DNA of 64,000 nucleotides, taken from Chloroflexota bacterium (GTDB lineage Bacteria; Chloroflexota; Anaerolineae; DTLA01). The stretch covers positions 3,327 through 67,326 of the forward strand of contig JACIWU010000001.1 of NCBI GenBank assembly GCA_014360805.1, given 5' to 3'. The notes beneath the pieces are model-generated. The model was not told the origin of the DNA and ran no database searches. It saw only the letters and a list, made by a program, of their open reading frames with translations. Shown one piece after another: positions 4,783 to 58,374 of this stretch. The stretch's first letter is position 1. Each line of letters starts with the position of its first letter. Position numbers and translations under genes: made by a program.

Positions 4783-6036
4783 ATGACACGAAACCGACAA
4801 TGCCTACATTCTCTGTGCGGCGCCTCGTTTCGCCTTCTCGCTCTCGCAGCACTTGCGGGCATCGTCGCGCTTGCCCAGGCCTGCGGGCCAACGCCCACGC
4901 CGCCGGCCCCAACCGCAACGTCGGCTCCTGCAACGCCTGCCGCGCCCACCCTGGCGCCTTCGCCCACGCCGACCGCGCTGCCCCCATCCGCTACGCCGTC
5001 GCCGATACCATCCGCGACCCTCGCGCCCACGGCAACGCCGGCGCCCACGCGCACGCCGACGAAATCCACACCCGCCACGCCAACGCCCACCGCGACCGTC
5101 GTCCCGGTTCCGTCTGTCCGGTCCCTGGTCGTCTCCTCGGGAGAAGACCGTACCCTGTACGCCATCATCGGCGACAGCGCGTATCGGAGCGCCGATGGGG
5201 GCGCGACGTGGACGCCGCTGGACCTCACGGGTGTCGCGCCCGCGTCGCGCCTGTTCGCCCTGGCGCTGGACTACCGCAACCCGTCCGTGATGTACCTGAC
5301 CACCAGCAGCGGCATCTATCGGCGCGTTAGCACGTCTGCATGGGAGTTCGTGCATCCTCTCAAAGCGCAGACGCTGGCAGTGGATTTCGTGGATTCCAAC
5401 GTCCTGTGGGCGGGCGTATCCTGGACGACGGAGTACAAAGCCGTCATTCTCAAAAGCACCGATGCTGGGCGAACCTGGGGCAAGGCCGATTTCGGCATCC
5501 AGGCATACCTGGGCTATGGCGTTACCCGCATCCTCATTGACCCTGCGAACCCCGATATCCTCTACGCCAATCTTCGCTACGGCGGGCGGTTCGGGTGGCC
5601 GGAGGGCTGGCTCTACCGAGGCGGCCGGGTCGGGAACTGGGAGCCGCTGCCTGTGGGTGACCAGCCGACAGGCGGAGGTTTCTCCGAGGGCGCATGCATG
5701 CCCCACGGCCTGGCGTTTGACCCCAACCTGCGCCGCCTGTACGTGGGATGCGATGCCTACTACTACAACAACTCCCGCTTGTTCATGCTCGTCTCTGACA
5801 ACGCCCACGAGCCGGATTCGCGCAACATCGCCTGGGCCGAGGCGCTGACGCTGGGCACGTTGACGCCGCCGTTCGCCCTGGGCTACGTGGAGCCTCTTGC
5901 GGTGGACGCCCGCGCACCCAAAGCCCTCTACGTAGCCGTATCGGGAAACAGCACCGTCTCCGAACAACCCTATCGTCTCCTCGTCGGCCGCGATGATGGC
6001 CAGACATGGCTTGACCTGCCCATACCCGCATATTGA
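4783..6036 (+). CDS. Lipoprotein with a PT-rich linker and a BNR/Asp-box beta-propeller (Ycf48/sortilin-like)
   Basis: Signal peptide plus lipobox LAQAC. PT-rich segment of about 90 aa. Asp-box-like motifs SADGGATW, STDAGRTW and GRDDGQTW. RBS GGGGAG. Confidence 0.8.
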   Translation: MTRNRQCLHSLCGASFRLLALAALAGIVALAQACGPTPTPPAPTATSAPATPAAPTLAPSPTPTALPPSATPSPIPSATLAPTATPAPTRTPTKSTPATPTPTATVVPVPSVRSLVVSSGEDRTLYAIIGDSAYRSADGGATWTPLDLTGVAPASRLFALALDYRNPSVMYLTTSSGIYRRVSTSAWEFVHPLKAQTLAVDFVDSNVLWAGVSWTTEYKAVILKSTDAGRTWGKADFGIQAYLGYGVTRILIDPANPDILYANLRYGGRFGWPEGWLYRGGRVGNWEPLPVGDQPTGGGFSEGACMPHGLAFDPNLRRLYVGCDAYYYNNSRLFMLVSDNAHEPDSRNIAWAEALTLGTLTPPFALGYVEPLAVDARAPKALYVAVSGNSTVSEQPYRLLVGRDDGQTWLDLPIPAY

Positions 6037-13235: not shown

Positions 13236-13478
13236 TCGCACCACCCGGTCGCAACAGTCTTTCGCCACGGACAACAGCGGGATTTGCAATTGCACCAACC
13301 GCGCCTGCCGTCGGAACGCGAGGCCATAGGCGCATTCCCCGGCGCGCGGCGCTATCATACCCGTTTTCGCATCCCTGTCAACGTCGTGCGCCCCGCTGTG
13401 GGTCGCAGCGTCCTCGACGGTGAAATCCAGGCCCTTCACCCCGCACCCCCAGCCGTGAATCCCGCACACGTCGTCTTT

Positions 13479-17637: not shown

Positions 17638-18756
17638 ATGGCAAACAAACAATGGGTATCCTTCGCTGTCTCGCTGGGAGGTCTTGTCCTGTTGGTAGCG
17701 TGCGCTGGCCCCGCAACTTCAAGCCCTACGGCCAGGCGTACCGTGCCTATCGGCACAGTCGCAGTGGCCACAAAGGCCCATCCCACAGAACCCCCTTGGA
17801 CTAGCACGCCCGCCCGCAAACCCACAGCCACCCCCATGTCCACCGCTACGCCGCAAGCCGTCATCCCCATTGACGGAGCGCGCAGTGTGGCCTTTCACCC
17901 GAGTGGGCGATGGGTGGCCTTCGGCACTCTGGACGGCGAGGTGATCCTATGGGACATCCGCGAGAACCGCGAAGTGCGCCGCATGAAAGAGCACAGCGGC
18001 ATGGTCGGTACTGTGGACTTCAGCGCCGATGGCTCACTCCTCGCGTCGGGCAGCGCCGACAAGACCGCCATCGTATGGGACGCGAATACGGGGGAACGGA
18101 AGCATCGCCTAATCGAGCATTCCGCCGAGGTTGCCGGCGTGGCCTTTGCCGACTACGGCGCGTGGCTGTTCACCGGCAGCAGGGATGGCTATGTGTGGAT
18201 GTGGGATGCAGACGACGGCACCAAGGTGGCCTATACCCAGGGGCCGTCGCAGGTCGTGGGCATCGCCTACAGCCACACGCGCCTGCTAGCAATGGCCCGC
18301 CAGGATGGCCTGGTCATAGTCGCCGACTGGCAGGCCCAGAAGGACAAATTCGTGATCCGCGCCTTCCCCGATCTACAGCAGGGGCAGACGACCTACGCAC
18401 TGGGCTATCCCCGCATGGCCTTCAGCCCAGATGGCTCCTTGCTGGCCTGCCCGTCGCTCTTCCTTCAGGCTGGCGCGTCGCCTGGAAAGGCGTATCTCTT
18501 TGACATGCGCGCAGGTCAGAACGTGGCGGAGTTCCCCGGCAACCCTCGCGCGACGGCCTTCAGCCCCGATGGTACACAACTGGCACTCGGCCACTTGTCC
18601 GGCGCTGTAGAGGTATGGGACGTGAAAAAGAAAACCAAGTCTCTGACGTTCCCCGGAGCCGGCGTCGTTTGGGATCTGGCCTTCAGCCCCGATGGGCGCT
18701 CCCTGGTCGCCGTAGGCACTCTGGGCGTGCAAATCTGGACCATACCGGCCGATTAG
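17638..18756 (+). CDS. WD40-repeat lipoprotein with a PT-rich linker
   Basis: Signal peptide plus lipobox LVAC. PT-rich segment. Multiple WD repeats (GSADKTAIVWD, GSRDGYVWMWD, VEVWD). Confidence 0.85.
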   Translation: MANKQWVSFAVSLGGLVLLVACAGPATSSPTARRTVPIGTVAVATKAHPTEPPWTSTPARKPTATPMSTATPQAVIPIDGARSVAFHPSGRWVAFGTLDGEVILWDIRENREVRRMKEHSGMVGTVDFSADGSLLASGSADKTAIVWDANTGERKHRLIEHSAEVAGVAFADYGAWLFTGSRDGYVWMWDADDGTKVAYTQGPSQVVGIAYSHTRLLAMARQDGLVIVADWQAQKDKFVIRAFPDLQQGQTTYALGYPRMAFSPDGSLLACPSLFLQAGASPGKAYLFDMRAGQNVAEFPGNPRATAFSPDGTQLALGHLSGAVEVWDVKKKTKSLTFPGAGVVWDLAFSPDGRSLVAVGTLGVQIWTIPAD

Positions 18757-31047: not shown

Positions 31048-31076
31048 TTGACAAGGATATCACAATGACCTAGAAT
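31048..31076 (+). promoter_or_regulatory. Consensus sigma70 promoter for the kimA-trkA operon
   Basis: TTGACA (31048-31053), 17-nt spacer, TAGAAT (31071-31076). Short leader to the GTG at 31094. Confidence 0.5.
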
Positions 31077-34476: not shown

Positions 34477-35349
34477 ATGTGGCAAGAATACCTGTTTGCG
34501 ACCTCGGTAGAGCACGCGCTGGAATTGCTAGGCCAGTATGAGGGGCGTGCCCAACTCATCGCGGGAGGCACAGACCTGGTGCTCCAAAGCCAGCGCGGCG
34601 AATGTCCCGCCACCGTCATTGTGGACATCACCCGCATCCCTGGCCTGAATTACATCCAAGAGCAAGACGGCCATATCGTCGTCGGTGCGCAAGTTACCCA
34701 CGCCCAGATCGCAGCGTCATCTCTGATACGCGAGAAGGCCCCCATCCTCGCCATGGCCTGCGCGCAGGTCGGCGGCCCGCAAATCCGAAACGCCGGCACC
34801 CTCGTGGGCAATGTGATCAACGCGCAGCCCGCCGCCGACGGCGCTGTGGCCCTGTTCGCGCTGGACGCCGAACTGGAAGTCGCAACCCCCGAAGGCCGGC
34901 GATGGGAGCCGATCGCCCACGTGTACCGCGGCGTCGGTGTCTGCACCATCAACCCCTGCCAGGAGATGGTAACGGCCGTCCGCTTCAGATCCCTCACAGG
35001 CGCTTGCGGATGCAACTACCAGCGCTTGGCCCGCCGCAAAGCGTTGACGCTCCCCACGCTCGTGGTGGCGGTGGTGCTGGAGATGGCCGGCGACGCCATC
35101 AAGTGGGCGCGCATCGCCATCGGGCCGGTCGCGCCCACGCCCTACCGCGCCGCCGACGCCGAGGCTTACCTCATCGGCAAGAAGGCAGAAGAGTCGGTCT
35201 TCGCCGAGGCCGGGCGACTCGCCGCCGCCAAGGCCCGACCGCGCGACAGCCTGATACGCGGTTCTGGCGAATACCGGACGGCCATGGTCGGGGTGTTGGT
35301 GCGGCGCGCGCTGGCTGCGGCTGCCCAGGAATGCCACGGGAGGCGATAA
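34477..35349 (+). CDS. Xanthine dehydrogenase / CO dehydrogenase family FAD-binding subunit (CoxM-like)
   Basis: FAD-binding PCMH domain with AGGTDL. 290 aa. Confidence 0.85.
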   Translation: MWQEYLFATSVEHALELLGQYEGRAQLIAGGTDLVLQSQRGECPATVIVDITRIPGLNYIQEQDGHIVVGAQVTHAQIAASSLIREKAPILAMACAQVGGPQIRNAGTLVGNVINAQPAADGAVALFALDAELEVATPEGRRWEPIAHVYRGVGVCTINPCQEMVTAVRFRSLTGACGCNYQRLARRKALTLPTLVVAVVLEMAGDAIKWARIAIGPVAPTPYRAADAEAYLIGKKAEESVFAEAGRLAAAKARPRDSLIRGSGEYRTAMVGVLVRRALAAAAQECHGRR

Positions 35350-35350
35350 G

Positions 35351-35830
35351 ATGCACACGCTGATGATGAACGTCAACGGATCCGACGTCCACGTTGAAAT
35401 CTACCCGGACGAAACGCTGGCCGAGGTTCTGCGCGACCGGCTCGGCCTCATCGGCACAAAGGTAGCCTGCGGCGAAGGCGAGTGCGGCGCCTGCACCGTG
35501 CTCATTGACGGCGTCGCAGTTACATCCTGTATTACCCCCGCCATGAAGGCCCATGGGCGCCGTGTGGTTACCATAGAGGGACTTACCGAAGACACAGAAC
35601 TGCACGTCATTCAGCAGGCTTTCGTGGACGCCACCGCCTCGCAGTGCGGATACTGCACCCCTGGTTTCATCATGGCTACCAAGGCGCTGCTGGATGCGAA
35701 CCCCAACCCCACACGAGACGAGATCATGCACGGCATATCGGGCAACCTGTGCCGCTGCACAGGTTACTACCAGATCGTGGACGCAGTGGCCCTGGCCGCG
35801 AAACGCCTCGCAGAGGAGGAGCGATCATGA
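35351..35830 (+). CDS. (2Fe-2S)-binding small subunit of a molybdo-hydroxylase (CoxS-like)
   Basis: CGEGECGACTV and QCGYCTPG two-cluster motifs. Confidence 0.9.
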   Translation: MHTLMMNVNGSDVHVEIYPDETLAEVLRDRLGLIGTKVACGEGECGACTVLIDGVAVTSCITPAMKAHGRRVVTIEGLTEDTELHVIQQAFVDATASQCGYCTPGFIMATKALLDANPNPTRDEIMHGISGNLCRCTGYYQIVDAVALAAKRLAEEERS

Positions 35831-38043
35831 GCAAAGCGATTGGCTCGCCGCATACTCGCCTGGACATCGTCGCGAAAGTCAAGGGAACCCGCAAGTACCC
35901 GCAGGACTTCAACATGGAGGGGCAACTCTGGGCCGCCGTCGTCTGGGCCGCTCACCCTCATGCCATCGTCCGACGCATTGACACGTCGGCCGCCGAGGCG
36001 CTGCCGGGCGTCGTGCGCATCCTCACGTCCAACGACGTGCCCGTCAACAGTTACGGCATCAACATCCCCGACCAGCCCGTTCTGGTGGGCGAAGGCGAAA
36101 AGGTGCGCTGGGTGGGCGACCGCATCGCCATCGTCGTGGCCCAAGACCGCCGCACCGCCTACAAGGCGCGGGATCTGGTGCAGGTGGACTACGAACCGCT
36201 GCCGGTGGTGTCCGACGTGTTCGCCGCCATGCAGGAGAACGCCCCTCGCATTCACGAAGACCGCCCCAGCAACATTCTACACCACATTCCTATACGCAAG
36301 GGCAACATAGAAGAGGGTTTCGCGCAGGCCGATGTCATCGTGGAAAGCGAAATCTCCACGCCTTTCGTGGAGCACGCCTACATGCAGCCGGAAGCAGGCA
36401 TCGGCTACATAGACGAGGAGGGGCGCGTTACCGTTATTGCTTCCGCCCAGTGGCCCCATGACGACCTGCACCAGATCGCGCGCATGCTGGACCTGCCGGA
36501 GGACAAGGTGCGGGAAATTGTGCCCGCAGTCGGGGGCGCATTCGGAGGGCGCGAGGACATGTACATCCAGCATCTCCTGGCCCTCTGCGCCTTCGTCATG
36601 CGCCGGCCGGTGAAGATGGTGTGGGACCGCGAGGAGTCCATCACCCGTACAGGTAAGCGCCACCCGTTCTACTTCCAGTACAAGGTCGGAGCCACGCGCG
36701 AGGGCATCCTGACGGCTGTCCAGATTCGCCTTGTCTCCGACGCCGGAGCCTACGCATCCACGTCCGTCCCCGTGCTCAACAATGCGGCCAGTTTCGCCGC
36801 GGGGCCCTACAAGTACCCACACGCGCACGTGGACGCCTACACCGTCTTCACGAACAACGCGGTTACGATGGCGATGCGCGGGTTCGGCGCTACGCAGCCG
36901 CCGGTCATGTACGAGAGAATGCTGGACCAGTTGGCCGAAGCCCTGCACATGGACCCGGTGGAACTGCGCATGAAGAATCTGCTGGGCGACGGCGACATCA
37001 GCATCACCGGCAATGCCATGTGGGGCGGCGTAGGCATCAAGGAAACGCTGCGGCAGGCAGCCCTGGCTGCCGGCTGGCGGCAGGAAGGCGAGCACTGGGT
37101 CAAACCCGACCTGGGCCAGCCGTCCGCCCCGCACAAGAAGCGCGGCATCGGCATCGCCTGCGCGTACAAGAACGTCGGCTACTCCTTCGGCTTTGACGAC
37201 AAGTCGGAGGCCGAAGTCATCCTCCGCCTCAAGATGGACGGCAGCATCGCCAGCGCAACGGTCAAGACCGCCGCCGTGGAGGTAGGCCAGGGTGTAACCA
37301 CCGCCCTCGCCCAGATCGCCGCCGAGACGCTGGGCATTCCGGTGTCCAGGGTGCGCATCGCCCTCATTGACACCAGCGACGTCCCTAACGCAGGCAGTTC
37401 CTCCGCCTCGCGCCATGTGTACATCACGGGTAACGCGGTGTACGGTGCCTGCAAGGCGGCACTTGAAAAGCGCGAGCGCATCCTGCTGGAGGAAAGCGGC
37501 GAACCGACCGTGTCGGCCCGATACCTGTACCACGGCCGCTCCCATCGCCCCACGACGCCCTATGACCCCGAGACAGGGCAATGCAATCCGCACATCGCCT
37601 ACTCCTACGGCACCGAGATCGCCCTCGTGGAGGTGGACACCGAGACGGGAGAGACAGAGGTCTTGAAAATGTGGGCCGCTCACGACGCGGGCAGGGTGGT
37701 CAATCCGGCCCAATACTTCGGCCAGGTGGCCGGCGGCGTCCACATGGGCGTGGGCTACGGCCTGACCGAGGAGTACATGCAGCAGGACGCACGGCCGCGC
37801 ACCCGCCACTTCAGCGAGTACTTCATCCCGACCGTGCTGGACATGCCGCGCGAACTGGTCTCCCTGGCCGTAGAAGTGGAAGACCCCACCGGCCCCTTCG
37901 GCGCGAAGGGCCTGGGCGAGACGCCGACTCTGCCCACAGCCGCCGCAATCGCCAATGCGATCCACGACGCCACAGGTGTCTGGCTCAATCGCATACCGGC
38001 CACCAGCGAAATGGTCTGGCGCGCGATTCATAGCAGGGGCTAG
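35827..38043 (+). CDS. Molybdopterin-binding large subunit of a xanthine dehydrogenase family enzyme
   Basis: 738 aa. Aldehyde-oxidase/xanthine-dehydrogenase a/b hammerhead and MoCo-binding domains (GGAFGGRED). ATGA overlap with the upstream gene. Confidence 0.9.
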   Translation: MSKAIGSPHTRLDIVAKVKGTRKYPQDFNMEGQLWAAVVWAAHPHAIVRRIDTSAAEALPGVVRILTSNDVPVNSYGINIPDQPVLVGEGEKVRWVGDRIAIVVAQDRRTAYKARDLVQVDYEPLPVVSDVFAAMQENAPRIHEDRPSNILHHIPIRKGNIEEGFAQADVIVESEISTPFVEHAYMQPEAGIGYIDEEGRVTVIASAQWPHDDLHQIARMLDLPEDKVREIVPAVGGAFGGREDMYIQHLLALCAFVMRRPVKMVWDREESITRTGKRHPFYFQYKVGATREGILTAVQIRLVSDAGAYASTSVPVLNNAASFAAGPYKYPHAHVDAYTVFTNNAVTMAMRGFGATQPPVMYERMLDQLAEALHMDPVELRMKNLLGDGDISITGNAMWGGVGIKETLRQAALAAGWRQEGEHWVKPDLGQPSAPHKKRGIGIACAYKNVGYSFGFDDKSEAEVILRLKMDGSIASATVKTAAVEVGQGVTTALAQIAAETLGIPVSRVRIALIDTSDVPNAGSSSASRHVYITGNAVYGACKAALEKRERILLEESGEPTVSARYLYHGRSHRPTTPYDPETGQCNPHIAYSYGTEIALVEVDTETGETEVLKMWAAHDAGRVVNPAQYFGQVAGGVHMGVGYGLTEEYMQQDARPRTRHFSEYFIPTVLDMPRELVSLAVEVEDPTGPFGAKGLGETPTLPTAAAIANAIHDATGVWLNRIPATSEMVWRAIHSRG

Positions 38044-38206: not shown

Positions 38207-38336
38207 ATTTTGCGGCTTCCCGCGATTGCATCCCTAAACGCAAGTTGTGCTATAATAGAAAATGTAAGAAACGGAAAGCCCCGATGCGCAGGGGCGCACG
38301 GGGCATTTCGCGTCCGTGCTTCAGGTGGGGGGAAAA

Positions 38337-38912
38337 TTGGCAAAGAAGGGCACTCTTCTCAGCACTGGCGAAGTAGCCACTCGGGCCGGCGTAACCCGTA
38401 CCACGGTGCTTCACTGGATCAAGTCCGGGAAACTACAGCCTGCCCTCACGACCGCTGGCGGCCACTACCGCATCGCAGAGTCTGACCTGGCGCGCTTCCT
38501 GGCCGAGCACTACGGTACGGACGCGCCCGGCCCCAGAAACGTCATCCTCGTCGTGGACGACGAGCCTTCCATCCTGGAAGTCGTGCTCCTGGCCCTCCGG
38601 CCTGCCTTCCCCGGATGGCGCATGGAAACGGCATCCGATGGCGTGGAGGCCGGCATGAAACTGCTCCGCTTCACGCCGGCGCTTCTGGTCCTGGATCTCA
38701 TGCTGCCGGGGATTGACGGCTTTGAAGTCTGTCGCCTCGTGCGAAGCGACCCCGAACTGCGCAAAATTGCCATCCTGTGCATCACCGGCTACAAGCACCC
38801 CGGCATATACGAGCAGGCCCTGGAGGCCGGCGCCGACGAATGCCTCTTCAAGCCGCTTGACATGAAGACCCTGAGCGAAAAAGCGCAGGAACTTGTGGCC
38901 CGCCACCGCTAG
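38337..38912 (+). CDS. Hybrid regulator with an N-terminal MerR/excisionase-type HTH and a C-terminal response-regulator receiver domain
   Basis: LSTGEVATRAGVTRTTVLHWIKSGKL HTH, then a REC domain (VVDDEPS...D in LVLDLMLPGIDG...K). TTG start at 38337. Confidence 0.65.
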   Translation: MAKKGTLLSTGEVATRAGVTRTTVLHWIKSGKLQPALTTAGGHYRIAESDLARFLAEHYGTDAPGPRNVILVVDDEPSILEVVLLALRPAFPGWRMETASDGVEAGMKLLRFTPALLVLDLMLPGIDGFEVCRLVRSDPELRKIAILCITGYKHPGIYEQALEAGADECLFKPLDMKTLSEKAQELVARHR

Positions 38913-38962: not shown

Positions 38963-39550
38963 TTGAGTTCGCCGCGCGTAGACCCGAAAGGACAAGGGTA
39001 CGTGGACATTTCCGACGCGCTTCTCCTACAACGGTGGCAGGACGGCGACGAGACGGCCTTCGCCGACATCTTCCTGCGCCACTACGGCCCACTGGTCCGC
39101 GCGCTACGAAACCTGCTCGGCTCCACCGACGAGGCGGAGGACATCGCGCAGGAGACGTTCTGGCGGCTCTACCGGCATCCGCTGGCCGCAGAACGAGAGC
39201 ACAACCTGGCCGCCTGGCTCATGCGCGTGGCGACACGCCTGGGCTACAATGCACTGCGAGAACGGGCGCGGCGGGAGCGCAGGCAGGGCGTGTGGCAGCA
39301 GCAGGTGGAAACCACACCCAATCCGGAGACGGAAGCCCTTCGGCAGGAGACGCGGCGAGAGGTGCAGCAGGCCTTGGCCCGAATGCCATTCCGCCAGGCG
39401 CAGATACTGTTCCTGCGGCACCAGGGATACGCCTACGCGGAACTCGCAGAAATCGTCGGGGTCAAAGTCTCATCAGTGGGAACGTTGCTTGCCCGCGCCG
39501 AACGCACCTTCGCCAGACACTACCGCGGCGACGCGCCGGGCAGCATGTGA
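38963..39550 (+). CDS. ECF-subfamily RNA polymerase sigma factor
   Basis: Region 2 (DIAQETFWRLY) and region 4 (AELAEIVGVKVSSVGTLLARAE). The start is uncertain (TTG 38963 or GTG 39002). Confidence 0.82.
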   Translation: MSSPRVDPKGQGYVDISDALLLQRWQDGDETAFADIFLRHYGPLVRALRNLLGSTDEAEDIAQETFWRLYRHPLAAEREHNLAAWLMRVATRLGYNALRERARRERRQGVWQQQVETTPNPETEALRQETRREVQQALARMPFRQAQILFLRHQGYAYAELAEIVGVKVSSVGTLLARAERTFARHYRGDAPGSM

Positions 39551-39571
39551 AGTTTGCGAGAGGAGGCAGAG

Positions 39572-40711
39572 ATGCACATCCCTGAAGGCACTCTCCGCGC
39601 ATACCTGGACGAGCAAACATCGTCCGAAGAAACGCGCACCATCGCCGAACATCTCCGCGCATGCGTCGCGTGCCGCGAGCGGCTGGCGAGGCTGGAAGCC
39701 CGCCGCAGCCACGCCGCAGCCGCCATGTCCACCCTGCAGCCCCCGGAGGACCGCGTGCCCACCCATCCGTCCCAGGCCCTCGCGCGGTTCCGCCAGCAAC
39801 ACAACGTCCACGAACACAACGAAAGGAGACACGCTCCCATGAGAAAGCACAACAACCTGGGCCGCTGGAAGCCCGTCTGGATCGGCCTCGCGGTCCTTGT
39901 CATCGCATCGCTGTTCATCTTCTACCCGCCATTGCGGACGGCGGCCTCGGACTTCCTGGGCATTTTCCGTGTCCGCAAGTTCGTCGCCGTGCCCATCAAC
40001 GTGTCGGCGCTGGAGAACCCGACGTTTGAGAACCTGCTGCAATCCGCGTTCTCGGATCAACTCACCGTCACCAAGGAACCAGGGCCAGCGATCCCCGTCG
40101 CCTCCCCCGAGGAAGCATCCGCGGCCCTGGGGTTCGCGGTGCGGCTCCCGTCGGCACTGCCCCAAGGATACACGGCCCAGCCCAGCATGAGCATCCAGGG
40201 CGAGTTCGCATTCCGCGCGCGTGTGGACATGGATTACGTGCTGGCCGTTCGGGAGGCCCTGGGCAAGACGGACGTCCCCATCCCGCCGGGGTTGGACGGG
40301 GCGGTGCTGGACGTAACCGTGCCCAAGATACTCGCCGCCAACTACACATCGGAGTGGGGTTGGCTCACCGTAGTCCAGGCCATGTCGCCCGAGGTTCAGT
40401 TGCCGCCGAACCTGGACTTGCAGCAAATCGGCGAGTTTGGCCTGCGACTGGCCGGCATTCCGGCGGATCAGGCCCGCCAGATGGCTGCGGTCATTGACTG
40501 GGCCAACACGCTCATCATCCCTGTGCCGCTGGGCTACGCCTCTTACGAAGAGGTAACCGTGGCAGGCACGCGCGGCGTGCTCATCAGTGACAGCGCAGAG
40601 GAGGCTTCCGGGCACTACCTGCTCGTCTTCGCCAAGGATGGCATCGTGTACGGGCTGGAGGGGGCGGCCTCGGCGCAGGAACTGCTGGCCGCCGCCGAGT
40701 CCATGTTCTAG
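39572..40711 (+). CDS. Anti-sigma factor: zf-HC2, single TM, periplasmic DUF4367-like domain
   Basis: HLRACVACRERL zinc-finger motif. TM helix WIGLAVLVIASLFIF. GAGGAGG RBS. Located immediately downstream of the ECF sigma gene. Confidence 0.72.
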   Translation: MHIPEGTLRAYLDEQTSSEETRTIAEHLRACVACRERLARLEARRSHAAAAMSTLQPPEDRVPTHPSQALARFRQQHNVHEHNERRHAPMRKHNNLGRWKPVWIGLAVLVIASLFIFYPPLRTAASDFLGIFRVRKFVAVPINVSALENPTFENLLQSAFSDQLTVTKEPGPAIPVASPEEASAALGFAVRLPSALPQGYTAQPSMSIQGEFAFRARVDMDYVLAVREALGKTDVPIPPGLDGAVLDVTVPKILAANYTSEWGWLTVVQAMSPEVQLPPNLDLQQIGEFGLRLAGIPADQARQMAAVIDWANTLIIPVPLGYASYEEVTVAGTRGVLISDSAEEASGHYLLVFAKDGIVYGLEGAASAQELLAAAESMF

Positions 40712-47905: not shown

Positions 47906-49753
47906 TTACGGCAGCAGAAGCATAGCCTTCGCAAACGTGTCCGGAAACTCGGGCAGAATCGTCAACTCCAGGTAGTCCGCGCGGGCTGCGATGGCACGCG
48001 CGCGCTCCCGCTCGTCCAGCGACACCAGCGCCAGCCGCGCGCCCACCGCCGCCGCATTCCCCACCTGCTGCACCTTAGAGGCCGGCACCGGCGGGAGAAG
48101 CCCGATTTCCAGAATGCTGTCCACACTCAAGTACGTGCCGAACGCGCCTGCCAGGATCACCGCATCCACATCGGAAACGGCGACGCCCGCCTCGGCCATC
48201 AGCAGTTCAATGCCCGCGCGAATGGCCCCCTTCGCCAGTTGAATCGCGCTCACGTCTTTGCGAGAGAGCGCGACCGCTCGCCCGTGCCCCGACTCGTCCG
48301 GCGTCGCCAGCACGAATTCAGGCCCGTCGGCCCCTTTGTGGACGCGGGGGTGATCCAGCATCTTGCCCGCAGCCGTGAGCACGCCAGCCCGCCGCAGCGC
48401 CGCCACCGCGTCCAGCACGCCAGACCCGCATATCCCGACGGGCGGCGCGTTGTCCACCGTCTGCCAGTGCACCTGGCCGTCGTCCAGGCTCACCCACTCT
48501 ATGGCGCCCGAGGCCGCGCGCATCCCGTCGCGAATATGCGCACCCTCAAAGGCCGGCCCCGACGCCGTGGAGCAACTGATGAGTCGCGACGGCGTCTTCA
48601 GCACCAGTTCCGTATTGGTGCCGATGTCAAGGCCCAGCACGATGCCTTCCATGTCCGGTATGCGCGTGCCCAGGAGCATCGCCACATGATCGGCGCCCAC
48701 AAACCCCGCCACGTTGGGTAGGAGATGCACATAGGCCCCCTCCGCGATGTCCAGGCCCACGTCGCGCGCCTTCACATCCAGCGCGGCGCTCTCGGTGGGG
48801 ACGTAGGGAGCCGCGCCCAGTTGGCTCACGGGCAGGCCCAGGAACAGGTGGTGCATCGCCGTATTGCCCACGACGACGGCTTCCACGACTTCACGGGGCG
48901 TTCGCCCCACCCGCCGACACAGCGCGCCCGCCAAATCCCCGATGGCACGCACCACAACCTGCTGCAACTCCCGCGCCTGCTGCTCCCCCTGCATGGCGTA
49001 GCCGATGCGCGCCATCACGTCCTCGCCAAAGGCAATCTGCGGGTTCATGACGCCGTCGGCGGCCAGCGAACGCCCGCTCTCCAAATCCACCAGGTGCGCG
49101 GCGATCTTGGTCGTGCCCAGGTCAACCGCAAGTCCCAGCGGCCGCTCATCAGGCGGGCCGAAGCGCACCACTTCCGCCTTGCCCCCCACGCGGCGAACAT
49201 GCGCCACGCCTCGCCACCCCTGCGCCCGCAGGCGATCCGCCAATGGCCGCAACGCCGCGAAGTCCACCGCAACATCGGCGAAGCCGCACGTCCCGCGCAA
49301 GGCGTCGCGCAGACGAACGGCATCGGCGCGGAGGTCGGTCAGGGCGGCGGGCGGCAGTTCCACAGCGCAGGCCACAACCGGCGGGTTCGGCGTAACCTGG
49401 ACGGCCTGGCCCTCCACCTGTAGGCGCTGCGTGGTGCTGAGGGAATCGGCGGGGACGTACACCTTCACGCCCCCGCGAACGCGCGTCTGGCACGCCAGTC
49501 GCATTCCCTGCGCAACGGCGTCAGCGCCCAGTCTGCGAATCTCGGTTTCGGATGGCGACGAGACATCGCCGGCCATCACGCGCACGCGACAGCGCCCGCA
49601 CGACCCGGTTCCGCCGCAGATCGCGGCAAGCGCGACACCCGCGCGCCTGGCCGCGTCCAGCAGTGTCTCGCCCGAAGCGCACTCCGATCGCAGTCCAAGC
49701 GGCTCAAAGTCAATCCAGCATGTGCCCACCACGAGCCTCCTACGAACGACCAC
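47906..49753 (-). CDS. RACo-like ASKHA-fold ATPase with an N-terminal plant-type [2Fe-2S] ferredoxin domain (DUF4445 family)
   Basis: N-terminal Cys motif CGGTGSCGRCRV...C. ASKHA motifs (LAVDLGTT, LDIGTNTE, GICGSG). 615 aa. GTG start overlapping the upstream gene by 14 nt. Confidence 0.78.
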   Translation of the reverse strand: MVVRRRLVVGTCWIDFEPLGLRSECASGETLLDAARRAGVALAAICGGTGSCGRCRVRVMAGDVSSPSETEIRRLGADAVAQGMRLACQTRVRGGVKVYVPADSLSTTQRLQVEGQAVQVTPNPPVVACAVELPPAALTDLRADAVRLRDALRGTCGFADVAVDFAALRPLADRLRAQGWRGVAHVRRVGGKAEVVRFGPPDERPLGLAVDLGTTKIAAHLVDLESGRSLAADGVMNPQIAFGEDVMARIGYAMQGEQQARELQQVVVRAIGDLAGALCRRVGRTPREVVEAVVVGNTAMHHLFLGLPVSQLGAAPYVPTESAALDVKARDVGLDIAEGAYVHLLPNVAGFVGADHVAMLLGTRIPDMEGIVLGLDIGTNTELVLKTPSRLISCSTASGPAFEGAHIRDGMRAASGAIEWVSLDDGQVHWQTVDNAPPVGICGSGVLDAVAALRRAGVLTAAGKMLDHPRVHKGADGPEFVLATPDESGHGRAVALSRKDVSAIQLAKGAIRAGIELLMAEAGVAVSDVDAVILAGAFGTYLSVDSILEIGLLPPVPASKVQQVGNAAAVGARLALVSLDERERARAIAARADYLELTILPEFPDTFAKAMLLLP

Positions 49754-50303
49754 GGCGGCGCTGGCTCAGCCCCACGAGCGCCTGCACGCCAAACGCGATC
49801 ACCCCACCGGCCAGAGCCGTGCCCAATTGCGGCCAGCGCATCATGTTGGCAAGGGCTTGCGGAATGGCGACGGTAGCCACCTCGCCGCCGACGGCCACCC
49901 GCAGCGGCCATGCGACGAGAACCCCGACCGCCGCGTACAGCCAGGCGAACTTCACCACCGCCGCCGCCACCAGCGCCGCGATGCGGCTGCGCCCCCGCAA
50001 CAGGCGGAACACGCTCACAAAGGCCGCGTTGCCCACGGCGATGAACGGAATCATGACCCACAGCGGCAGGGGCAGAATGCCCCGCAGCGCTGCGCCCATC
50101 GGCGTAACCATGCCCACCACAATCGCCTGACTCAACCCACACCACTCCAGCGTCAACAGCAACAGCGCGTTGACCAGCGGGCCGGTAAGGTACTGCGGCA
50201 ACCCCATGTTGGTGATGGCGAGGGCCGCCGCCAGGGCAAGCGCCAACTTCGCCGCGGCCATCCAGGCCGCACTCCGATTCCAAACGAGCGACTTGGTCTC
50301 CAT
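49740..50303 (-). CDS. Small polytopic membrane protein, possibly an ECF-type S-component / Gx-transporter-like protein
   Basis: 187 aa with about 6 TM helices. GGGGAG RBS before ATG 50303. Confidence 0.45.
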   Translation of the reverse strand: METKSLVWNRSAAWMAAAKLALALAAALAITNMGLPQYLTGPLVNALLLLTLEWCGLSQAIVVGMVTPMGAALRGILPLPLWVMIPFIAVGNAAFVSVFRLLRGRSRIAALVAAAVVKFAWLYAAVGVLVAWPLRVAVGGEVATVAIPQALANMMRWPQLGTALAGGVIAFGVQALVGLSQRRRGRS

Positions 50304-50351: not shown

Positions 50352-51527
50352 CTAGATCGTCTCCAGTGTAACCGATTTGTTCCTTTGCTCCAACTGGCGG
50401 ATCAACTCCTTGACGTAGAGCATCCGCATGGACTCGCCCCGAATCACATCCGCCACCTGATTGGGGTTGATGGCTGTGCCCACCAGAAAATGAATCTCGT
50501 CCGCGGAGAGGAGAATTCGCGCGAGGCGGCTGGCCGCATCCTCGCCTGGAGGCACGTCGTTCGCCGTCTGCGCGTGCTCCAGCAGGCTCACCGTCTGCCC
50601 CAGCGTGAGAATGCCCTCGGTAACCAAATCCACCCCGTCCAGCCGCGCTGTGGGGGGCGTGCCGCGCGCCCGAGGCGCGCCGCCCTTGCGTTTGCTCGGC
50701 GGCACCCAGTCCACCCGGAGTTCTTGCCCCAACACGCGCGCCGCGATCTGGGCGGTCGTCCCCCCGCAGATGACCTTCGCCCCGCGCGCCTTCATCAGTT
50801 TCGCGACGGCGGCCTCATCCTGCGAGCGGTCGGCGGGTGGCCCGGTCCACACATTCGCGACGACGGTCCGCCGAACGCGCATGACCACCGCCGTACTGTC
50901 GTCGCCGGGCTTCCCTTCGTACAGCCGCAGGGCCGTGTTGGACAGGGCGCGCGCCAGGCTATGCGCGTCCCCGGCCGTCTGCGCCCAACGTCGAACCGAC
51001 ACGGCGATATTCTGCCAGCCCCAGCCCAGGCGGTACAACCCGCCTACCCCCGCATGCACGTAGCCATCGCTGACCATCACCATGTAGTCGCCTTCTTGCA
51101 GAAGGAAATGCGCTTCGTGAATCTTGCGCCCCTCCACCTCACGCTCCACGCGGGGCACGTCCCATATCTTCCCCTCCCGAATCAGAATCAGGGGCGGGGT
51201 ATCGTACTCCACGAGATAGGCGTCGCGCCCTCGTTGCACCAGCAGCACCGCGAAGGTCGCGTAGGCCAGTTTCCTCACGCTGCACTCGGGCAGCGTGGCG
51301 ACCAGCGTGCTGATGACCTCCTCCACCGACGCGCCGCGCTGGAACATGGAGGCAGCGATCTCCGCCGTGAGCGTGGCCATGATGTTCGCCTTCACCCCGC
51401 TGCCAAGGCCGTCCGAAAGCACAACAATGAAGGACTGCGGCGTCGTGGCCACGCGCACGCAGTCGCCACAGAGTTCCTCCCCGTGCTTGGCCAGGCTGTT
51501 CCACGCGATCTCAACAAACAGCCTCAT
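50352..51527 (-). CDS. SpoIIE/PP2C-family serine phosphatase
   Basis: PPM-type metal-binding Asp motifs (CGDCV, VLSDGLGSG, MVMVSDG). 391 aa. ATGA overlap with the upstream hydS-like gene. Confidence 0.8.
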   Translation of the reverse strand: MRLFVEIAWNSLAKHGEELCGDCVRVATTPQSFIVVLSDGLGSGVKANIMATLTAEIAASMFQRGASVEEVISTLVATLPECSVRKLAYATFAVLLVQRGRDAYLVEYDTPPLILIREGKIWDVPRVEREVEGRKIHEAHFLLQEGDYMVMVSDGYVHAGVGGLYRLGWGWQNIAVSVRRWAQTAGDAHSLARALSNTALRLYEGKPGDDSTAVVMRVRRTVVANVWTGPPADRSQDEAAVAKLMKARGAKVICGGTTAQIAARVLGQELRVDWVPPSKRKGGAPRARGTPPTARLDGVDLVTEGILTLGQTVSLLEHAQTANDVPPGEDAASRLARILLSADEIHFLVGTAINPNQVADVIRGESMRMLYVKELIRQLEQRNKSVTLETI

Positions 51528-53242
51528 GGCTCGGACTCTTCCTCCAACAACTTGGCGAGCCGCGACAGCATGATCTTCGCGTCCGCCGTCGTCTCGCCCA
51601 GCAATTGCGCGATCTCGTGGGCCACGCGCATCTGCTTGATGACCACCTCTTGGGTTCGCTGGAGCGTTTCCTCGCGAATGCGTTCCAACTGGGCTCGCTG
51701 CTGCTCGTGCTCGGTAACATCCCGCAGGATGCCCACGATAAGGTTCTGGTCTTTCACGGCGACGATAGTCTGCTCCACGATGAGGCCGTTGAGGGCAAGG
51801 CGCTGGCGGATGATGGGCTGGCCGGTTCGGCGCACCGACTCAAACCCCTGCAATACGACGGGCGGGGCGACCTCGTCCAGCGGGTGCCCCATGACCTGCG
51901 GGAGCGAACACCGTAGCATCGCCTCTGCCGAGGGCGACATGTCTTGGATGTGGAGCCGCGTGTCCACCGTAATCACCGGGTCCTGCGTTACAGCCATGAT
52001 CACCTGGCGGAGCGACTCGGCCCGCTTGCGCGTGTACGGGATGCACATCGTAGCCTCTGCAAGCCCGCGCAAGGTAGCAATGGCTTTGTCTCGGCAGGTG
52101 GGATAGCCGCACGCGCCACAGTTCAGTTCGTCTTCGGGCGTGTACTTGTCCACCCGATGCAGGACTTCGCGGATTTGCTCCTCGGTAAAATCCGGCAGCG
52201 GAACGCTTTTGTCCCGATAGGTCCGAGTTAGCGGCGGCCACTCCGACCGAGACGGCAGCGGTTGGGGCTGGCGCCGCGCCGCATACTCCAGCACCCGCTG
52301 TCGCGCCTGGTACACGCCGATGTCCTTGCCCATCCCCGGGCCGTTGATGCACCCGCCCTCGCAGGCCATGAGTTCCACGAGCGACGCCCGCAGGGTTCCG
52401 GCGCGAATGCTCTGGAGCACGTCTTCACAGGCAGATAGCCCCGATGTCGTTACGATTTCGCTCGCAAGAATATCGGTGTCCAGATTCGCCGTGCCCACCA
52501 GGCCCCCCTCCACAGGGAACACGCGGGCATTGGCGCGGGGCACGTGCTCGTGCAAATCGGGGGGCGCAGGCATGGCAACCGCATCCGATTGCAGCCATTC
52601 CGACAGTTCCTCGTAGGTCAGCGCCGCGTCAATCACGCCCTCAACCGCCTCTTCGCGGATTTCGCCCTTCTTGGCGAAACACGGCCCGATGAAGACGAGA
52701 AAGGCCTCCTCGCCATACCGCTGGCGCAGCCAACGCCCGTGCGCGATCATGGGCGAAACCACAGGGGCCAGATGCGGGATCAGATCGGGGTAGTAAATCT
52801 CAATCAGATTCACCACCACAGGGCAGGACGAGGTAATCACCGGCCACCGACTGGGTTCGGCTTCCATCACTTCGCGGTGCGCATGGCCCACCATCTCCGC
52901 GCCGAAGGCCGTCTCGTGCGCCGCCGAGAACCCCAACGCGCGCAGAGCCTGCTCCATCTGCGCGAAGGACTGGATGCCGAAATAGGCCGGCGCCGAGGGC
53001 GCAACGCTGGCGACGAGCGTTCGGCCTGCGGCCAGCGCCTCGCGCACCGCCGGACGGTCGTCGCGCACGCTTTTGGCGCCCTGCGGGCACGCGCGCACGC
53101 ACGAGCCGCACACAATGCACAACTCCGCCACGACCTGCGCCTGCCCGCTCTGCACTCGGACAGCCTTCACGGGGCAAGTCCGTACGCATCGGTAACAGTC
53201 GCGGCAACGCGCGACATTTGTGCTCACTACGGAATGCGTCAT
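51524..53242 (-). CDS. Sensory [FeFe]-hydrogenase-like protein (HydS-like, group C): N-terminal ferredoxin domain, H-cluster domain, extra 4-Cys motif and a C-terminal PAS domain
   Basis: CRDCYRCVRTCP and CIVCGSCVRACP 4Fe-4S motifs. H-cluster motifs TSSCPVV (L1), GPCFAKKGE (L2) and ELMACEGGCINGPG (L3). CGACGYPTCRDKA...C motif. PAS-like C-terminus. Confidence 0.8.
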   Translation of the reverse strand: MTHSVVSTNVARCRDCYRCVRTCPVKAVRVQSGQAQVVAELCIVCGSCVRACPQGAKSVRDDRPAVREALAAGRTLVASVAPSAPAYFGIQSFAQMEQALRALGFSAAHETAFGAEMVGHAHREVMEAEPSRWPVITSSCPVVVNLIEIYYPDLIPHLAPVVSPMIAHGRWLRQRYGEEAFLVFIGPCFAKKGEIREEAVEGVIDAALTYEELSEWLQSDAVAMPAPPDLHEHVPRANARVFPVEGGLVGTANLDTDILASEIVTTSGLSACEDVLQSIRAGTLRASLVELMACEGGCINGPGMGKDIGVYQARQRVLEYAARRQPQPLPSRSEWPPLTRTYRDKSVPLPDFTEEQIREVLHRVDKYTPEDELNCGACGYPTCRDKAIATLRGLAEATMCIPYTRKRAESLRQVIMAVTQDPVITVDTRLHIQDMSPSAEAMLRCSLPQVMGHPLDEVAPPVVLQGFESVRRTGQPIIRQRLALNGLIVEQTIVAVKDQNLIVGILRDVTEHEQQRAQLERIREETLQRTQEVVIKQMRVAHEIAQLLGETTADAKIMLSRLAKLLEEESEP

Positions 53243-53502
53243 GGTTTCTTCTCACGCTCCAGACGAGGCAGAATCTCCTTCTCAAAGAACGACTCCGCCT
53301 CCAGAAAATGAATCTCCCGATATTGCTGGTCTCCCACCTTCACCGAGATGCCCTTGGAACACTGCTCCATGCAAAACGCGCCCACCAGCCGCACGCGGTC
53401 TTCCAACCCCGCCTTCTGAATCAGCCGCTCCAGCGCGTCCGCAAACTCGTCCGAACCCCGCACGCTGCAAGAACTTCCAACGCAGATCGTAACCGTAATC
53501 AT
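53239..53502 (-). CDS. Thioredoxin-like [2Fe-2S] ferredoxin (NuoE/HoxE-like)
   Basis: 87 aa. Cys pattern C7-x5-C13 ... C44-x3-C48. GGGAGG RBS. ATGA overlap with the hydS-like start. Confidence 0.6.
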   Translation of the reverse strand: MITVTICVGSSCSVRGSDEFADALERLIQKAGLEDRVRLVGAFCMEQCSKGISVKVGDQQYREIHFLEAESFFEKEILPRLEREKKP

Positions 53503-53851
53503 CGCAACCTCCCTGGTGCCTGATGGGCAGAGCATCACTGCGACGGATGGACAATTATGTCAACACCACTTTCGCACCCCACACGGACCAGCGCCCACCT
53601 ACTGTAGCACAAACCGGCGCAGTTGCCAAATCCATTCGTGAAATCTGGAACGAGCCAAGGCGCAGATCAGGTTCCCGCACCCGACATTGCCGAACCCCGG
53701 TGGCTAACGATAGAGCCGCCCACCCACCCGTAGGTCGGATTTCCATACCCGACTGGCCTACCCCCCGCGATTGCGCCCCCGTGGCGTATCCGCTATACTG
53801 TATGTGTCCGATACTCCCTGTCAAATCTTGCGACCACAAGGAGGTTTGCTC

Positions 53852-54625
53852 ATGACGCTCAAGGGAAAACGCGTGGCTGTATTGGCCGAAGAGATGTACC
53901 AAGAACTGGAACTCTGGTATCCGACGCTCCGAATGCGCGAGGCCGGAGCCGAGGTAAAAATCGTCGGCACAGGCAGTAGCCCCACGTATGCGTCCAAACA
54001 CGGGTACCCAGTTACCGTGGATGTGCCGGCAGACCAGGTGTCCGCCGCCGACTTTGACGCGGTCATTATCCCTGGGGGCTACGCGCCCGACCGCATGCGC
54101 CGCTACCCTGCTGTCCTGAAACTCGTGCGTGAGGCGTTTGAGCAGGGCAAGGTCATCGCCGCCATCTGCCACGCGGGTTGGGTGCCGATCTCCGCGGGCA
54201 TTCTCAAAGGGCGGCGGGTAACCAGTTTCTTCGCGATCAAGGACGACATGATCAACGCAGGCGCCACCTGGGTTGACGAGCCGGTCGTCCGCGACGGGAA
54301 CCTCATCACGTCGCGCATGCCCGACGACCTTCCCTACTTCTGTAGCGCCATCATTCAGGCGCTGGGCGGCGGGGAGGTGAGCGCCGACATCGTGGAGACG
54401 ACGACAGCGAAAGAGGCCCTGGCCATCGCCGTCCGTGCCGAGGAACAGGCCGCCGCGTTCTACAAGGCCGCCGTCAAACGTACCCAGGACCCCGAGGCCA
54501 AGGCCATGTTTGAGGAACTGGCCAGGGAAGAACTCGGACACAAGGCGCGGCTGGAGAAAGAATACGTCCACCTCAGCGGCGATCCAAACTGGGCGCGCTA
54601 CGTGCTGTGGAGCAATCTCCCCTAG
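53852..54625 (+). CDS. DJ-1/PfpI-family protein fused to a C-terminal half-ferritin/rubrerythrin-like helical segment
   Basis: PfpI nucleophile elbow AICHAG. C-terminal AFYKAAV...EELAREELGHKARLEKEY (ExxH). AAGGAGG RBS. Confidence 0.72.
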   Translation: MTLKGKRVAVLAEEMYQELELWYPTLRMREAGAEVKIVGTGSSPTYASKHGYPVTVDVPADQVSAADFDAVIIPGGYAPDRMRRYPAVLKLVREAFEQGKVIAAICHAGWVPISAGILKGRRVTSFFAIKDDMINAGATWVDEPVVRDGNLITSRMPDDLPYFCSAIIQALGGGEVSADIVETTTAKEALAIAVRAEEQAAAFYKAAVKRTQDPEAKAMFEELAREELGHKARLEKEYVHLSGDPNWARYVLWSNLP

Positions 54626-57477: not shown

Positions 57478-58374
57478 ATGCTGACCGGAATTCACTTCTT
57501 GCTAACGTATGCATGTACCAGCGAATGCGATCACTGCTTCGTCTTCAGCAGCCCCCGCGCCACGGGCACCTTCACGCTGGACCAAATCGCGCAGGTGTTG
57601 GCGCAGGCGGCCGACCTGGGCACAGTGGACGCGGTCTATTTTGAGGGCGGAGAGCCATTTCTGTACTACCCGCTTATGTTGGAGGGGATTCGCCTGGCGC
57701 GCGACCTGGGATTCAAGACCGGCGTGGTTACCAACGCTTACTTCGCCACCACGGTCCAGGATGCGATGCTTTGGTTACGGCCTCTGCGGGACTTGGGCAT
57801 TTCGGATTTGAGCCTCAGCGACGACGCCTTCCACTTTGACACACCAGACAACGCCGCCAAGCGCGCTCTGGAAGCCGCCAAGTTGTTGGACCTGCCTGTG
57901 GGCACCATTTGCATAGAGATGCCGCGCGTGGCAACCGAACCTGGCGCGAGGGAGAAAGGCGCGCCGATTGTGGGCGGCAACGTCATGTTCCGAGGCCGAG
58001 CCGCCGAGAAACTGACCGAGGGGCTTCCGCGCCAAGATTGGCGAAGGTTCACCGAATGCCCCCACGAGGACCTGCGCAACCCCGAGCGCGTCCACGTGGA
58101 CGCTTTCGGCTGGGTCCATCTCTGCCAAGGGTTGTGCATGGGGAATCTGTGGGAAAAGCCGCTCGCGGCGCTGGTACGAGAGTATAGTCCCGACGCGCAT
58201 CCGGTCGTAGGCCCATTGGTACGGGGCGGCCCAACCCGCCTGGCCGAGGAGTACCGGTTGCCGCACGCGGAGGGCTATGCGGATGCCTGCCACCTGTGCT
58301 ACTCCATGCGCCTCGCCTTGACGGACCGCTTCCCCGACCTCTTGGCGCCGAGGCAAGTCTATGTACGGGAATAG
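57478..58374 (+). CDS. Radical SAM domain protein, function unknown
   Basis: CTSECDHC (CxxxCxxC) 14 aa from the N-terminus. Glycine-rich SAM-binding motif FEGGEP. 298 aa. Confidence 0.7.
   Translation: MLTGIHFLLTYACTSECDHCFVFSSPRATGTFTLDQIAQVLAQAADLGTVDAVYFEGGEPFLYYPLMLEGIRLARDLGFKTGVVTNAYFATTVQDAMLWLRPLRDLGISDLSLSDDAFHFDTPDNAAKRALEAAKLLDLPVGTICIEMPRVATEPGAREKGAPIVGGNVMFRGRAAEKLTEGLPRQDWRRFTECPHEDLRNPERVHVDAFGWVHLCQGLCMGNLWEKPLAALVREYSPDAHPVVGPLVRGGPTRLAEEYRLPHAEGYADACHLCYSMRLALTDRFPDLLAPRQVYVRE

Follow-up and report, generated by a model that had tools for sequence, protein, structure and literature searches.

A probable hfsABC-type module around a putative H2-sensing [FeFe]-hydrogenase in an Anaerolineae-like Chloroflexota genome

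What is a PAS-containing [FeFe]-hydrogenase doing between a small ferredoxin and a PP2C phosphatase: metabolizing H2 or sensing it? The question is raised by a minus-strand gene cluster at 53502..50352 in a 64-kb stretch (hereafter, the window) of contig JACIWU010000001.1, which belongs to a Chloroflexota metagenome-assembled genome (MAG) and to which an earlier note, made from the letters alone, had drawn attention. In our view this is likely to be an hfsABC-type module centred on a HydS/HfsB of group C, a putative H2-sensing [FeFe]-hydrogenase, in an Anaerolineae-like member of the Chloroflexota. The homology E-values behind the identifications given below lie far beyond chance, and chance occurrence is no concern.

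A sensor-type hydrogenase and its two partners

Three open reading frames (ORFs), all on the minus strand, make up the core of the cluster. An hfsA-like gene (53502..53239) encodes 87 aa from an ATG with a GGGAGG Shine-Dalgarno sequence; the mechanical ORF list starts this gene earlier, at 53538, and we adopted the ATG at 53502. It is followed by a hydS/hfsB-like gene of 572 aa (53242..51524) and an hfsC-like PP2C gene of 391 aa (51527..50352). Read directly in the sequence, the TGA of the hfsA-like gene overlaps the ATG of the 572-aa ORF in an ATGA at 53242-53239, and the TGA of the 572-aa ORF overlaps the ATG of the PP2C ORF in another at 51527-51524. The earlier note had placed the three ORFs and both overlaps correctly, just as it had the two 4Fe-4S motifs, the three H-cluster motifs and the extra four-Cys motif described next.

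The 572-aa protein is recorded at NCBI as MBC7257661.1 under the name "4Fe-4S binding protein," an annotation that under-describes it, since the hydrogenase and PAS domains are left out. Its F-domain (residues 9-57; 53072..53218, minus strand; Fer4, Fer4_10 and Fer4_7 in Pfam) contains two ferredoxin-type [4Fe-4S] motifs of the form CxxCxxCxxxCP at residues 13-24 and 42-53, i.e., C13xxC16xxC19xxxC23 and C42xxC45xxC48xxxC52. In an alignment of 81 orthologues from related loci, C42, C48 and C52 are invariant and C13, C16, C19 and C23 are present in 79, the other two being gapped there, while the C45 position holds Cys in 52 sequences and Asp in the other 29. The H-domain (residues 75-302; 52337..53020, minus strand) matches Pfam Fe_hyd_lg_C at 4.4e-54 and 184 bits over profile positions 2-245 of 245, and carries the H-cluster motifs T137SSCPVV (52814-52834), G186PCFAKKGE (52661-52687) and ELMACEGGCINGPG (E290LMACEGGCINGPG; 52334-52375), all on the minus strand. 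Behind it lies an accessory cluster motif, C375x2C378x4C383x16C400 (52043..52120, minus strand), which is matched by PF04060 "FeS" at residues 373-402 (36.5 bits, 4.1e-09); the Cx2Cx4Cx16C pattern is invariant in the 81 orthologues, and an atypical C-terminal four-Cys cluster of this kind is what, by published account, unites the group C/D sensors (PMC13104023). Going by these motifs, the protein holds all the residues for binding an H-cluster, two F-clusters and a fourth, C-terminal [4Fe-4S] site.

A PAS domain at about residues 413-520 (51683..52006, minus strand) was recognized by Pfam as PAS_4: against a gathering score of 23.1, the whole protein reaches 23.2 bits and its C-terminus, searched by itself, 26.7 bits. 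A profile of the C-terminal 169 residues, made from 14 diverse orthologues, matched solved PAS domains, best ThkA at 1.7e-07 and then DosP, FixL and WalK, and Pfam PAS families were matched by 14/14 of the orthologues, so that the PAS domain named in the earlier note is backed by profile searches. The remaining helical segment, about residues 521-572 (51527..51682, minus strand), is covered by no Pfam family. In two alignments that span Chloroflexota, Clostridia and Calditrichota, its sequence KQMRVAHEIAQLLGETTAxxK hardly varies. We met no mention of this tail in the literature consulted and regard it as a candidate docking, output or interaction element.

For comparison of the active site, the H-domain was aligned by HMMER to two group A enzymes of solved structure, T. 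maritima HydA (7p5h) and T. kivui HydA1 (8a6t). The window motifs TSSCP, GPCFAKKGE and ELMACEGGC pair with TSCCP, MPCtAKKfE and EvMACnyGC, respectively, and window C140, C188, C294, C298, K191 and E194 align with the group A ligands; failure to align with bona fide hydrogenases, which the earlier note had named as grounds for giving up its reading, was thus not seen. The equivalents of CpI C300, C355, C499, C503, K358 and E361 are invariant among the 81 orthologues. The equivalent of the proton-relay C299 is Ser in the window and Ser in 33, Ala in 29 and Cys in 13 of the 81, and that of M353 is Gly in the window and in 81/81. The replacement of the proton-transfer Cys, which the earlier note had proposed to look for as in HydS, is accordingly present as Ser. 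At the M497 position the window has M292 (52367-52369, minus strand), where the orthologues have Leu (36), Met (22), Asn (15) or Ser (6 of 81). In the alignment to T. maritima HydA, a gap falls where what we take to be the group A proton-pathway glutamate, presumably E279 in CpI numbering, would lie. C299, M353 and M497 are the positions that set sensors apart from prototypical enzymes in work on TmHydS; among sensor-type enzymes, the residue reported at C299 is Ala in most and Ser in about 10%, and that at M353 is Gly in about 51% (PMC10055695). The changes of C299 to Ser and M353 to Gly, as seen in the alignment, are typical of sensors and agree with this published description, while M497, kept as Met in the window, varies among sensors.

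Group C enzymes (M2f) combine an H-domain with a C-terminal cluster and a PAS domain, and group D enzymes (M2e; TamHydS) are without PAS (PMC13104023, PMC11216029). As far as sequence can tell, the window protein has the group C architecture; this earlier assignment is borne out by the domains, the sensor-type residues and a two-profile test. Here, distant (<50% identity) HfsB-type H-domains, including that of T. saccharolyticum HfsB, were set against 49 co-located catalytic-type H-domains, mostly with TSCCP and MPC motifs. The window H-domain scored 295.9 bits on the HfsB-type profile vs. 150.8 bits on the catalytic-type profile. These scores, together with a full-length match to hfsB, argue for grouping the window protein with HydS/HfsB and not with catalytic hydrogenases. 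Within group C, HydDB reportedly sets a "phosphatase-linked" subgroup C3, marked by linkage to a Ser/Thr phosphatase and said to go back to Greening and to Sondergaard in 2016, against the histidine kinase-linked C1 and the methyl-accepting chemotaxis protein (MCP)-linked C2. The window HydS is PP2C-linked, with no histidine kinase or MCP domain found by Pfam, and the C3 label would suit it.

The 87-aa partner (MBC7257662.1) is a stand-alone thioredoxin-like [2Fe-2S] ferredoxin with the pattern C7x4C12...C44x3C48, and its four Cys (Cx4C...Cx3C) are invariant in 63/63 orthologues. The protein alone scores 22.8 bits on Pfam 2Fe-2S_thioredx, under the gathering score of 24.8; PF01257 was matched by 9/9 sampled members of the family. 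Among solved structures, the family profile matches T. maritima HydA best, in its C-terminal [2Fe-2S] domain (residues 571-637, 2.3e-20), followed by HydC, NuoE and NDUFV2, in keeping with the NuoE-like ferredoxin that the earlier note had recognized. HfsA itself has been described as aligning poorly with any known protein (PMC11837493).

The 391-aa partner, likewise named correctly as SpoIIE/PP2C (Pfam match 4.4e-15), consists of a SpoIIE/RsbU-type PP2C Ser/Thr phosphatase at residues 1-225, which is catalytically intact, and a family-specific alpha/beta domain at residues 226-391 (50355-50852, minus strand) with near-invariant ICGGTTAQ, LVTEGILT and GxAxNxxQ motifs. No Pfam family covers this C-terminal domain, and its fold is only generically Rossmann-like. 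Among the full-length proteins in the best 150 matches, it stands solely behind this PP2C, and the domain has 745 representatives at 50% clustering. The partner-switching PP2Cs SpoIIE, RsbU, RsbX and Rv1364c differ from the window PP2C, which is without an N-terminal regulatory domain and has its own C-terminal alpha/beta domain instead. A partner-switching module of the RsbU/RsbV/RsbW type was considered and rejected, there being no STAS substrate or RsbW-type kinase in the window. Indeed, Pfam detected no STAS, small HATPase kinase, histidine kinase or Rex in the 64 kb, so that the absence of STAS, anti-sigma kinase and histidine kinase genes next to the operon, as first noted, holds across the whole window.

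Related loci and known systems

How typical is this arrangement? A protein search returned >4,000 homologues at E ≤ 1e-10, many of them full-length at 60-70% identity and from Chloroflexota/Anaerolineae, Dehalococcoidia, Syntrophales, Spirochaetota and Bacillota MAGs. When one genome per species was scanned, at least 600 places were matched, with 597 confirmed relatives among the matches listed. Our census comprises 84 loci, 80 of them from this species-representative scan, and the window proteins were mapped onto each. The PP2C gene lies directly 3' of the sensor gene in 76 of the 80 loci with enough downstream sequence, the C-terminal domain of the phosphatase is present in 78/84 loci, and an HfsA-like gene lies directly 5' of the sensor in 65 of the 80 loci with enough flank. 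The start/stop overlap between HydS and PP2C also occurs in loci L001-L004 and L085-L087; because it recurs across loci, sensor and phosphatase are probably made in fixed proportion and may act as a complex. The HfsA-like/HydS/PP2C trio is conserved across many phyla, near-obligate and translationally coupled.

Other genes accompany the trio less regularly. A second, catalytic-type H-domain is found within 8 kb in 38 of the 52 loci with at least 5 kb on each side, and of the 13 loci most similar to the window, with identities of at least 50%, 6 have a second hydrogenase nearby. Within the flanks examined, Rex was present in 23/84 loci and a small HATPase_c (RsbW-like) gene in 14/84, mostly Syntrophales-type loci plus one Spirochaete locus. 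We also observed a small HATPase_c protein of about 170 aa, resembling the RsbW/SpoIIAB Ser kinases, encoded convergent to or close behind PP2C in L004 (12921-13436) and in L011-L014, L017 and L049. The small HATPase_c protein of the Spirochaete/Syntrophales-type loci is the best candidate for an opposing kinase.

The closest described counterpart is hfsABCD of T. saccharolyticum and T. thermosaccharolyticum (Shaw 2009; PMC5707799; PMC11837493), with which the window shares the order HfsA, HfsB (with PAS) and HfsC (PP2C). The T. saccharolyticum locus in our census (L065) has the order HfsA-like, HfsB, PP2C and HfsD hydrogenase; since this is the published hfsABCD order (PMC5707799, PMC11837493), the window trio corresponds to hfsA-hfsB-hfsC. 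[quoted passage not shown] In contrast to hfsABCD, the window has no HfsD-type catalytic hydrogenase after PP2C, where genes for an S-component-like and a RACo-like protein stand instead, and its host is a high-GC member of the Chloroflexota, whereas T. saccharolyticum belongs to the Bacillota. As the cluster has no catalytic hydrogenase, we file it as an hfsABC-type module and not as a full hfsABCD operon. The arrangement had been put forward as noteworthy; the same order is published and occurs in nearly every related locus examined.

Three further sensors offer comparison. TmHydS, the group C enzyme of Thermotoga maritima (Chongdar 2018; PMC10055695), shares the two F-clusters, the H-domain, the C-terminal [4Fe-4S] cluster and PAS, and likewise has the proton-relay Cys replaced and Gly at M353. 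By its published description it differs at two positions: the C299 equivalent is Ser in the window and Ala131 in TmHydS, and the M497 equivalent is Met in the window and Ser267 in TmHydS. RaHydS of Ruminococcus albus (Zheng 2014, via PMC5707799, PMC10838669) contains PAS, and H2 sensing with signalling by Ser/Thr phosphorylation has been put forward as its role. In R. albus, however, hydS is transcribed as a unit with hydA2, a catalytic hydrogenase gene, and a neighboring Ser/Thr kinase is called upon; the window has neither. TamHydS, a group D (M2e) putative sensor from Thermoanaerobacter mathranii (PMC13104023), has N-terminal F-clusters, an active site of the sensor type and a four-Cys cluster at the C-terminus in common with the window protein, but lacks the PAS domain of the latter.

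Proposed function and competing explanations

From model systems (PMC5707799, PMC10055695, PMC10838669), we propose that the H-cluster would split H2 slowly and that the electrons would pass by way of the F-clusters to the HfsA-like [2Fe-2S] protein. The redox or conformational state set up in this way would be relayed through the C-terminal cluster, the PAS domain and the invariant helix to bound PP2C, whose activity toward a phospho-Ser/Thr protein would change, and this change would in turn adjust the expression or activity of redox and fermentation functions. In favor of a regulatory role in model organisms, deletions of hfsA/hfsB and of hfsC/hfsD have opposite phenotypes (PMC5707799), and in co-culture, removal of H2 lowers R. 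albus HydA2 transcripts 90-fold (PMC10838669).

Several points weigh against this proposal. A catalytic hydrogenase, Rex, a HATPase-type kinase and hydEFG are all absent from the 64 kb, and the substrate of the phosphatase and the regulated genes do not lie in the window; as these genes are absent, H-cluster assembly and output are not demonstrable from the window. We know of no PP2C substrate in any organism. For group C in general, the sensory role is still putative, with scant direct physiological evidence (PMC8924675), and the C-terminal cluster of TamHydS is unresponsive to H2 (PMC13104023). Moreover, introducing Met at the M497 position of TmHydS (S267M) cost the enzyme about 95% of its activity and moved the potential of the cluster (PMC10055695), and since the window has Met at that position, turnover may be very low. 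The position may thus tune sensors to different H2 ranges, as speculated in the same study (PMC10055695).

Could the 572-aa protein instead be a working, low-turnover metabolic hydrogenase for H2 uptake or evolution that has its [2Fe-2S] neighbor as electron partner, with PP2C as a mere post-translational regulator? Its catalytic ligands are all intact, its dedicated ferredoxin is translationally coupled, no other hydrogenase is nearby to be regulated, and TmHydS shows measurable H2 oxidation and production (PMC10055695). Even so, the protein lacks the canonical proton-relay Cys and, like sensors, has Gly for M353; PAS and the invariant C-terminal helix would have no role in a purely metabolic enzyme; in most of the well-flanked census loci, a separate catalytic-type hydrogenase adjoins the module; and hfs genetics point to regulation (PMC5707799). 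We therefore think a metabolic role unlikely.

A protein that never receives an H-cluster would be a different kind of sensor: with no HydEFG and only [4Fe-4S] clusters, it would report the state of the ferredoxin pool or oxidative state to PP2C. This would fit the lack of hydE, hydF, hydG or a catalytic [FeFe]-hydrogenase in 64 kb, the scarcity of a second hydrogenase among the closest loci (just 6 of 13) and the oxidative-stress gene, a rubrerythrin-DJ-1 fusion, that is transcribed divergently from the operon. However, maturase genes commonly lie apart from those for hydrogenases, so that not finding them in 64 kb means little; the [2Fe]-pocket residues tested, i.e., the C503, K358 and E361 equivalents, are invariant in the lineage, which argues for selection to keep the H-cluster; and in the related Anaerolineae loci L009 and L087 the module has genes of catalytic hydrogenase or formate dehydrogenase type next to it. 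We regard an H-cluster-free sensor as very improbable. Finally, we give practically no credence to a degenerate Nar1-like or NuoG-like H-domain fragment with a spurious PAS domain, the scenario by which the earlier note would have stood refuted: the full-length protein barely reaches the PAS_4 threshold, and NCBIfam hydrogenase models match under their full-length cut-offs, but these cut-offs are those of subfamily models for groups A and B and the window protein is not expected to reach them, Fe_hyd_lg_C is matched over its whole length with the four cluster Cys and K358/E361 present, and the family profile and all 14 orthologues attest the PAS domain.

Lineage-specific genes, genomic setting and significance

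With the H2-sensing module as our preferred reading, we turn to what stands behind PP2C in the window. Here, 48 nt 3' of PP2C and with its own Shine-Dalgarno sequence, is a gene for a 187-aa membrane protein resembling the S components of energy-coupling factor (ECF) transporters (49740..50303, minus strand), probably the fourth gene of the operon. NCBI names the protein "ECF transporter S component" (MBC7257659.1), and a few distant homologues carry PF12822. A sequence-profile search of the PDB with the family gave no match, and NCBIfam gave only weak matches, for 2/21 members. The AlphaFold2 model (mean predicted local distance difference test score, pLDDT, 87.5) has RibU and ThiT as its best Foldseek matches, at a TM-score of about 0.5, so that the model suggests a RibU/ThiT-like fold, for which support at the sequence level is weak. 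The family is narrow, at about 70 clusters. In the census, every one of the 10 Chloroflexota loci (9 Anaerolineae-type and 1 Chloroflexia) has the gene beside HydS-PP2C, against 0/74 others; it was seen in the window and in L002, L003, L005-L009, L021 and L064, and L085 and L086 have unannotated 182-aa genes at this position. No ECF A or T genes are adjacent to it.

Beginning 10 nt past the preceding stop, with an AGGAGG, is a gene for a 607-aa RACo/AcsV-like protein (47906..49729, minus strand), probably the last of the operon, as the next gene is convergent. The protein carries Fer2, RACo_linker, Raco_middle and RACo_C_ter (255.8 bits), i.e., a 2Fe-2S ferredoxin domain and an ASKHA ATPase, DUF4445; it scores 412.9 bits on NF040756 AcsV, under the cut-off of 800. 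The gene recurs only in a close relative, L002 (7652-9475), and in a Deltaproteobacteria MAG, L010 (3360-5192), where a homologue of 35% identity lies directly 3' of PP2C; since the latter MAG is unrelated, this suggests that the association of RACo with PP2C arose twice.

The S-component-like and RACo-like genes stand where a catalytic hydrogenase would in the operon, which is a lineage-specific and only mildly new point. Speculatively, their products are candidate outputs or accessories of the sensor. One may go further and suppose that, in Anaerolineae, HydS-PP2C has been uncoupled from hydrogenase genes and rewired by co-transcription with the S-component-like protein and, in the window lineage, with a RACo-like reductive activase, an idea that we hold to be distinctly unlikely. 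If it were true, H2 partial pressure would govern how a flavin or corrinoid cofactor is taken up or activated, and not hydrogenase expression; in a sharper variant, the membrane protein would be the PP2C substrate or its anchor.

The proteins of the operon are MBC7257658-MBC7257662. The divergent intergenic region 5' of it (53503..53851) has one weak sigma-70-like match in a consensus scan, TTGGCA-17-TACAGT at 53629..53601 on the minus strand; such sites are consensus matches only, with 3 found vs. 0.8 expected across the 6.5-kb region. A scan for a palindrome resembling the Rex operator, TTGTGAANNNNTTCACAA with as many as 3 mismatches, gave nothing 5' of the operon, and its sole match, at 31048, is at chance level. 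The Rfam scan found no family at gathering thresholds across the whole window, hence no riboswitch ahead of the S-component and RACo genes, and there is no tRNA in the window either. GC content and GC at third codon positions (GC3) are uniform, the operon being like its flanks.

On the other side of the intergenic region, divergent from the operon, lies a gene fusing a DJ-1/PfpI domain to a C-terminal rubrerythrin-type domain (53852-54625, plus strand), an oxidative-stress-type protein typical of anaerobes. The other genes around the operon encode radical SAM, amidohydrolase, LarA, iron alcohol dehydrogenase, DeoC aldolase and the RACo-like protein. For the sole radical SAM protein of the window (57478-58374, 298 aa), Pfam gave nothing beyond the generic Radical_SAM family; hydE, hydF and hydG were not found in the 64 kb, and neither was a second H-domain (tblastn, Pfam). 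Farther out are, among others, transporters, a glycogen phosphorylase-like protein and an ECF sigma factor, and no terminal oxidase or oxygenase was found among the window genes. The earlier description of the genome as aerobic-looking does not hold up against these anaerobe-typical neighbors and the lack of an oxidase; the neighborhood looks anaerobic or facultative, the expected setting for such sensors. Nor does the supposedly O2-requiring xanthine dehydrogenase support it. The genes in question (34477-38043, plus strand) encode FAD-binding and molybdopterin subunits of the xanthine dehydrogenase/CO dehydrogenase family; molybdoenzymes of the xanthine dehydrogenase family draw their oxygen atom from water, occur also in strict anaerobes and do not require O2. 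An aerobic CO dehydrogenase was rejected for the large subunit, which has no AYRCSFR or AYRGAGR motif, and no separate small [2Fe-2S] subunit ORF is evident between or just 5' of these genes.

Some other window genes deserve mention. Three large ORFs with coding-type GC3 belong to no Pfam family: 11072-13327 (minus strand, 751 aa), 4783-6036 (plus strand, 417 aa) and 39554-40711 (plus strand, 385 aa). The last is directly 3' of the ECF sigma factor gene (38963-39550) and of a MerR-HTH/receiver gene (38316-38912), and by its position after the sigma factor may encode an anti-sigma factor. A bacterial WD40 beta-propeller protein of 372 aa is encoded at 17638-18756 (plus strand).

The window locus is a typical copy of a widespread and already described module, and not unusual. 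How group C [FeFe]-hydrogenases convert an H2 signal into a response is an open question in the field, and TamHydS argues against the C-terminal cluster as the switch. To this signalling question the locus, a typical family member from an uncultured organism, adds little, while the census is modestly useful: a near-obligate, translationally coupled trio, whose PP2C has a private C-terminal domain, suggests that the three proteins form a stable complex.

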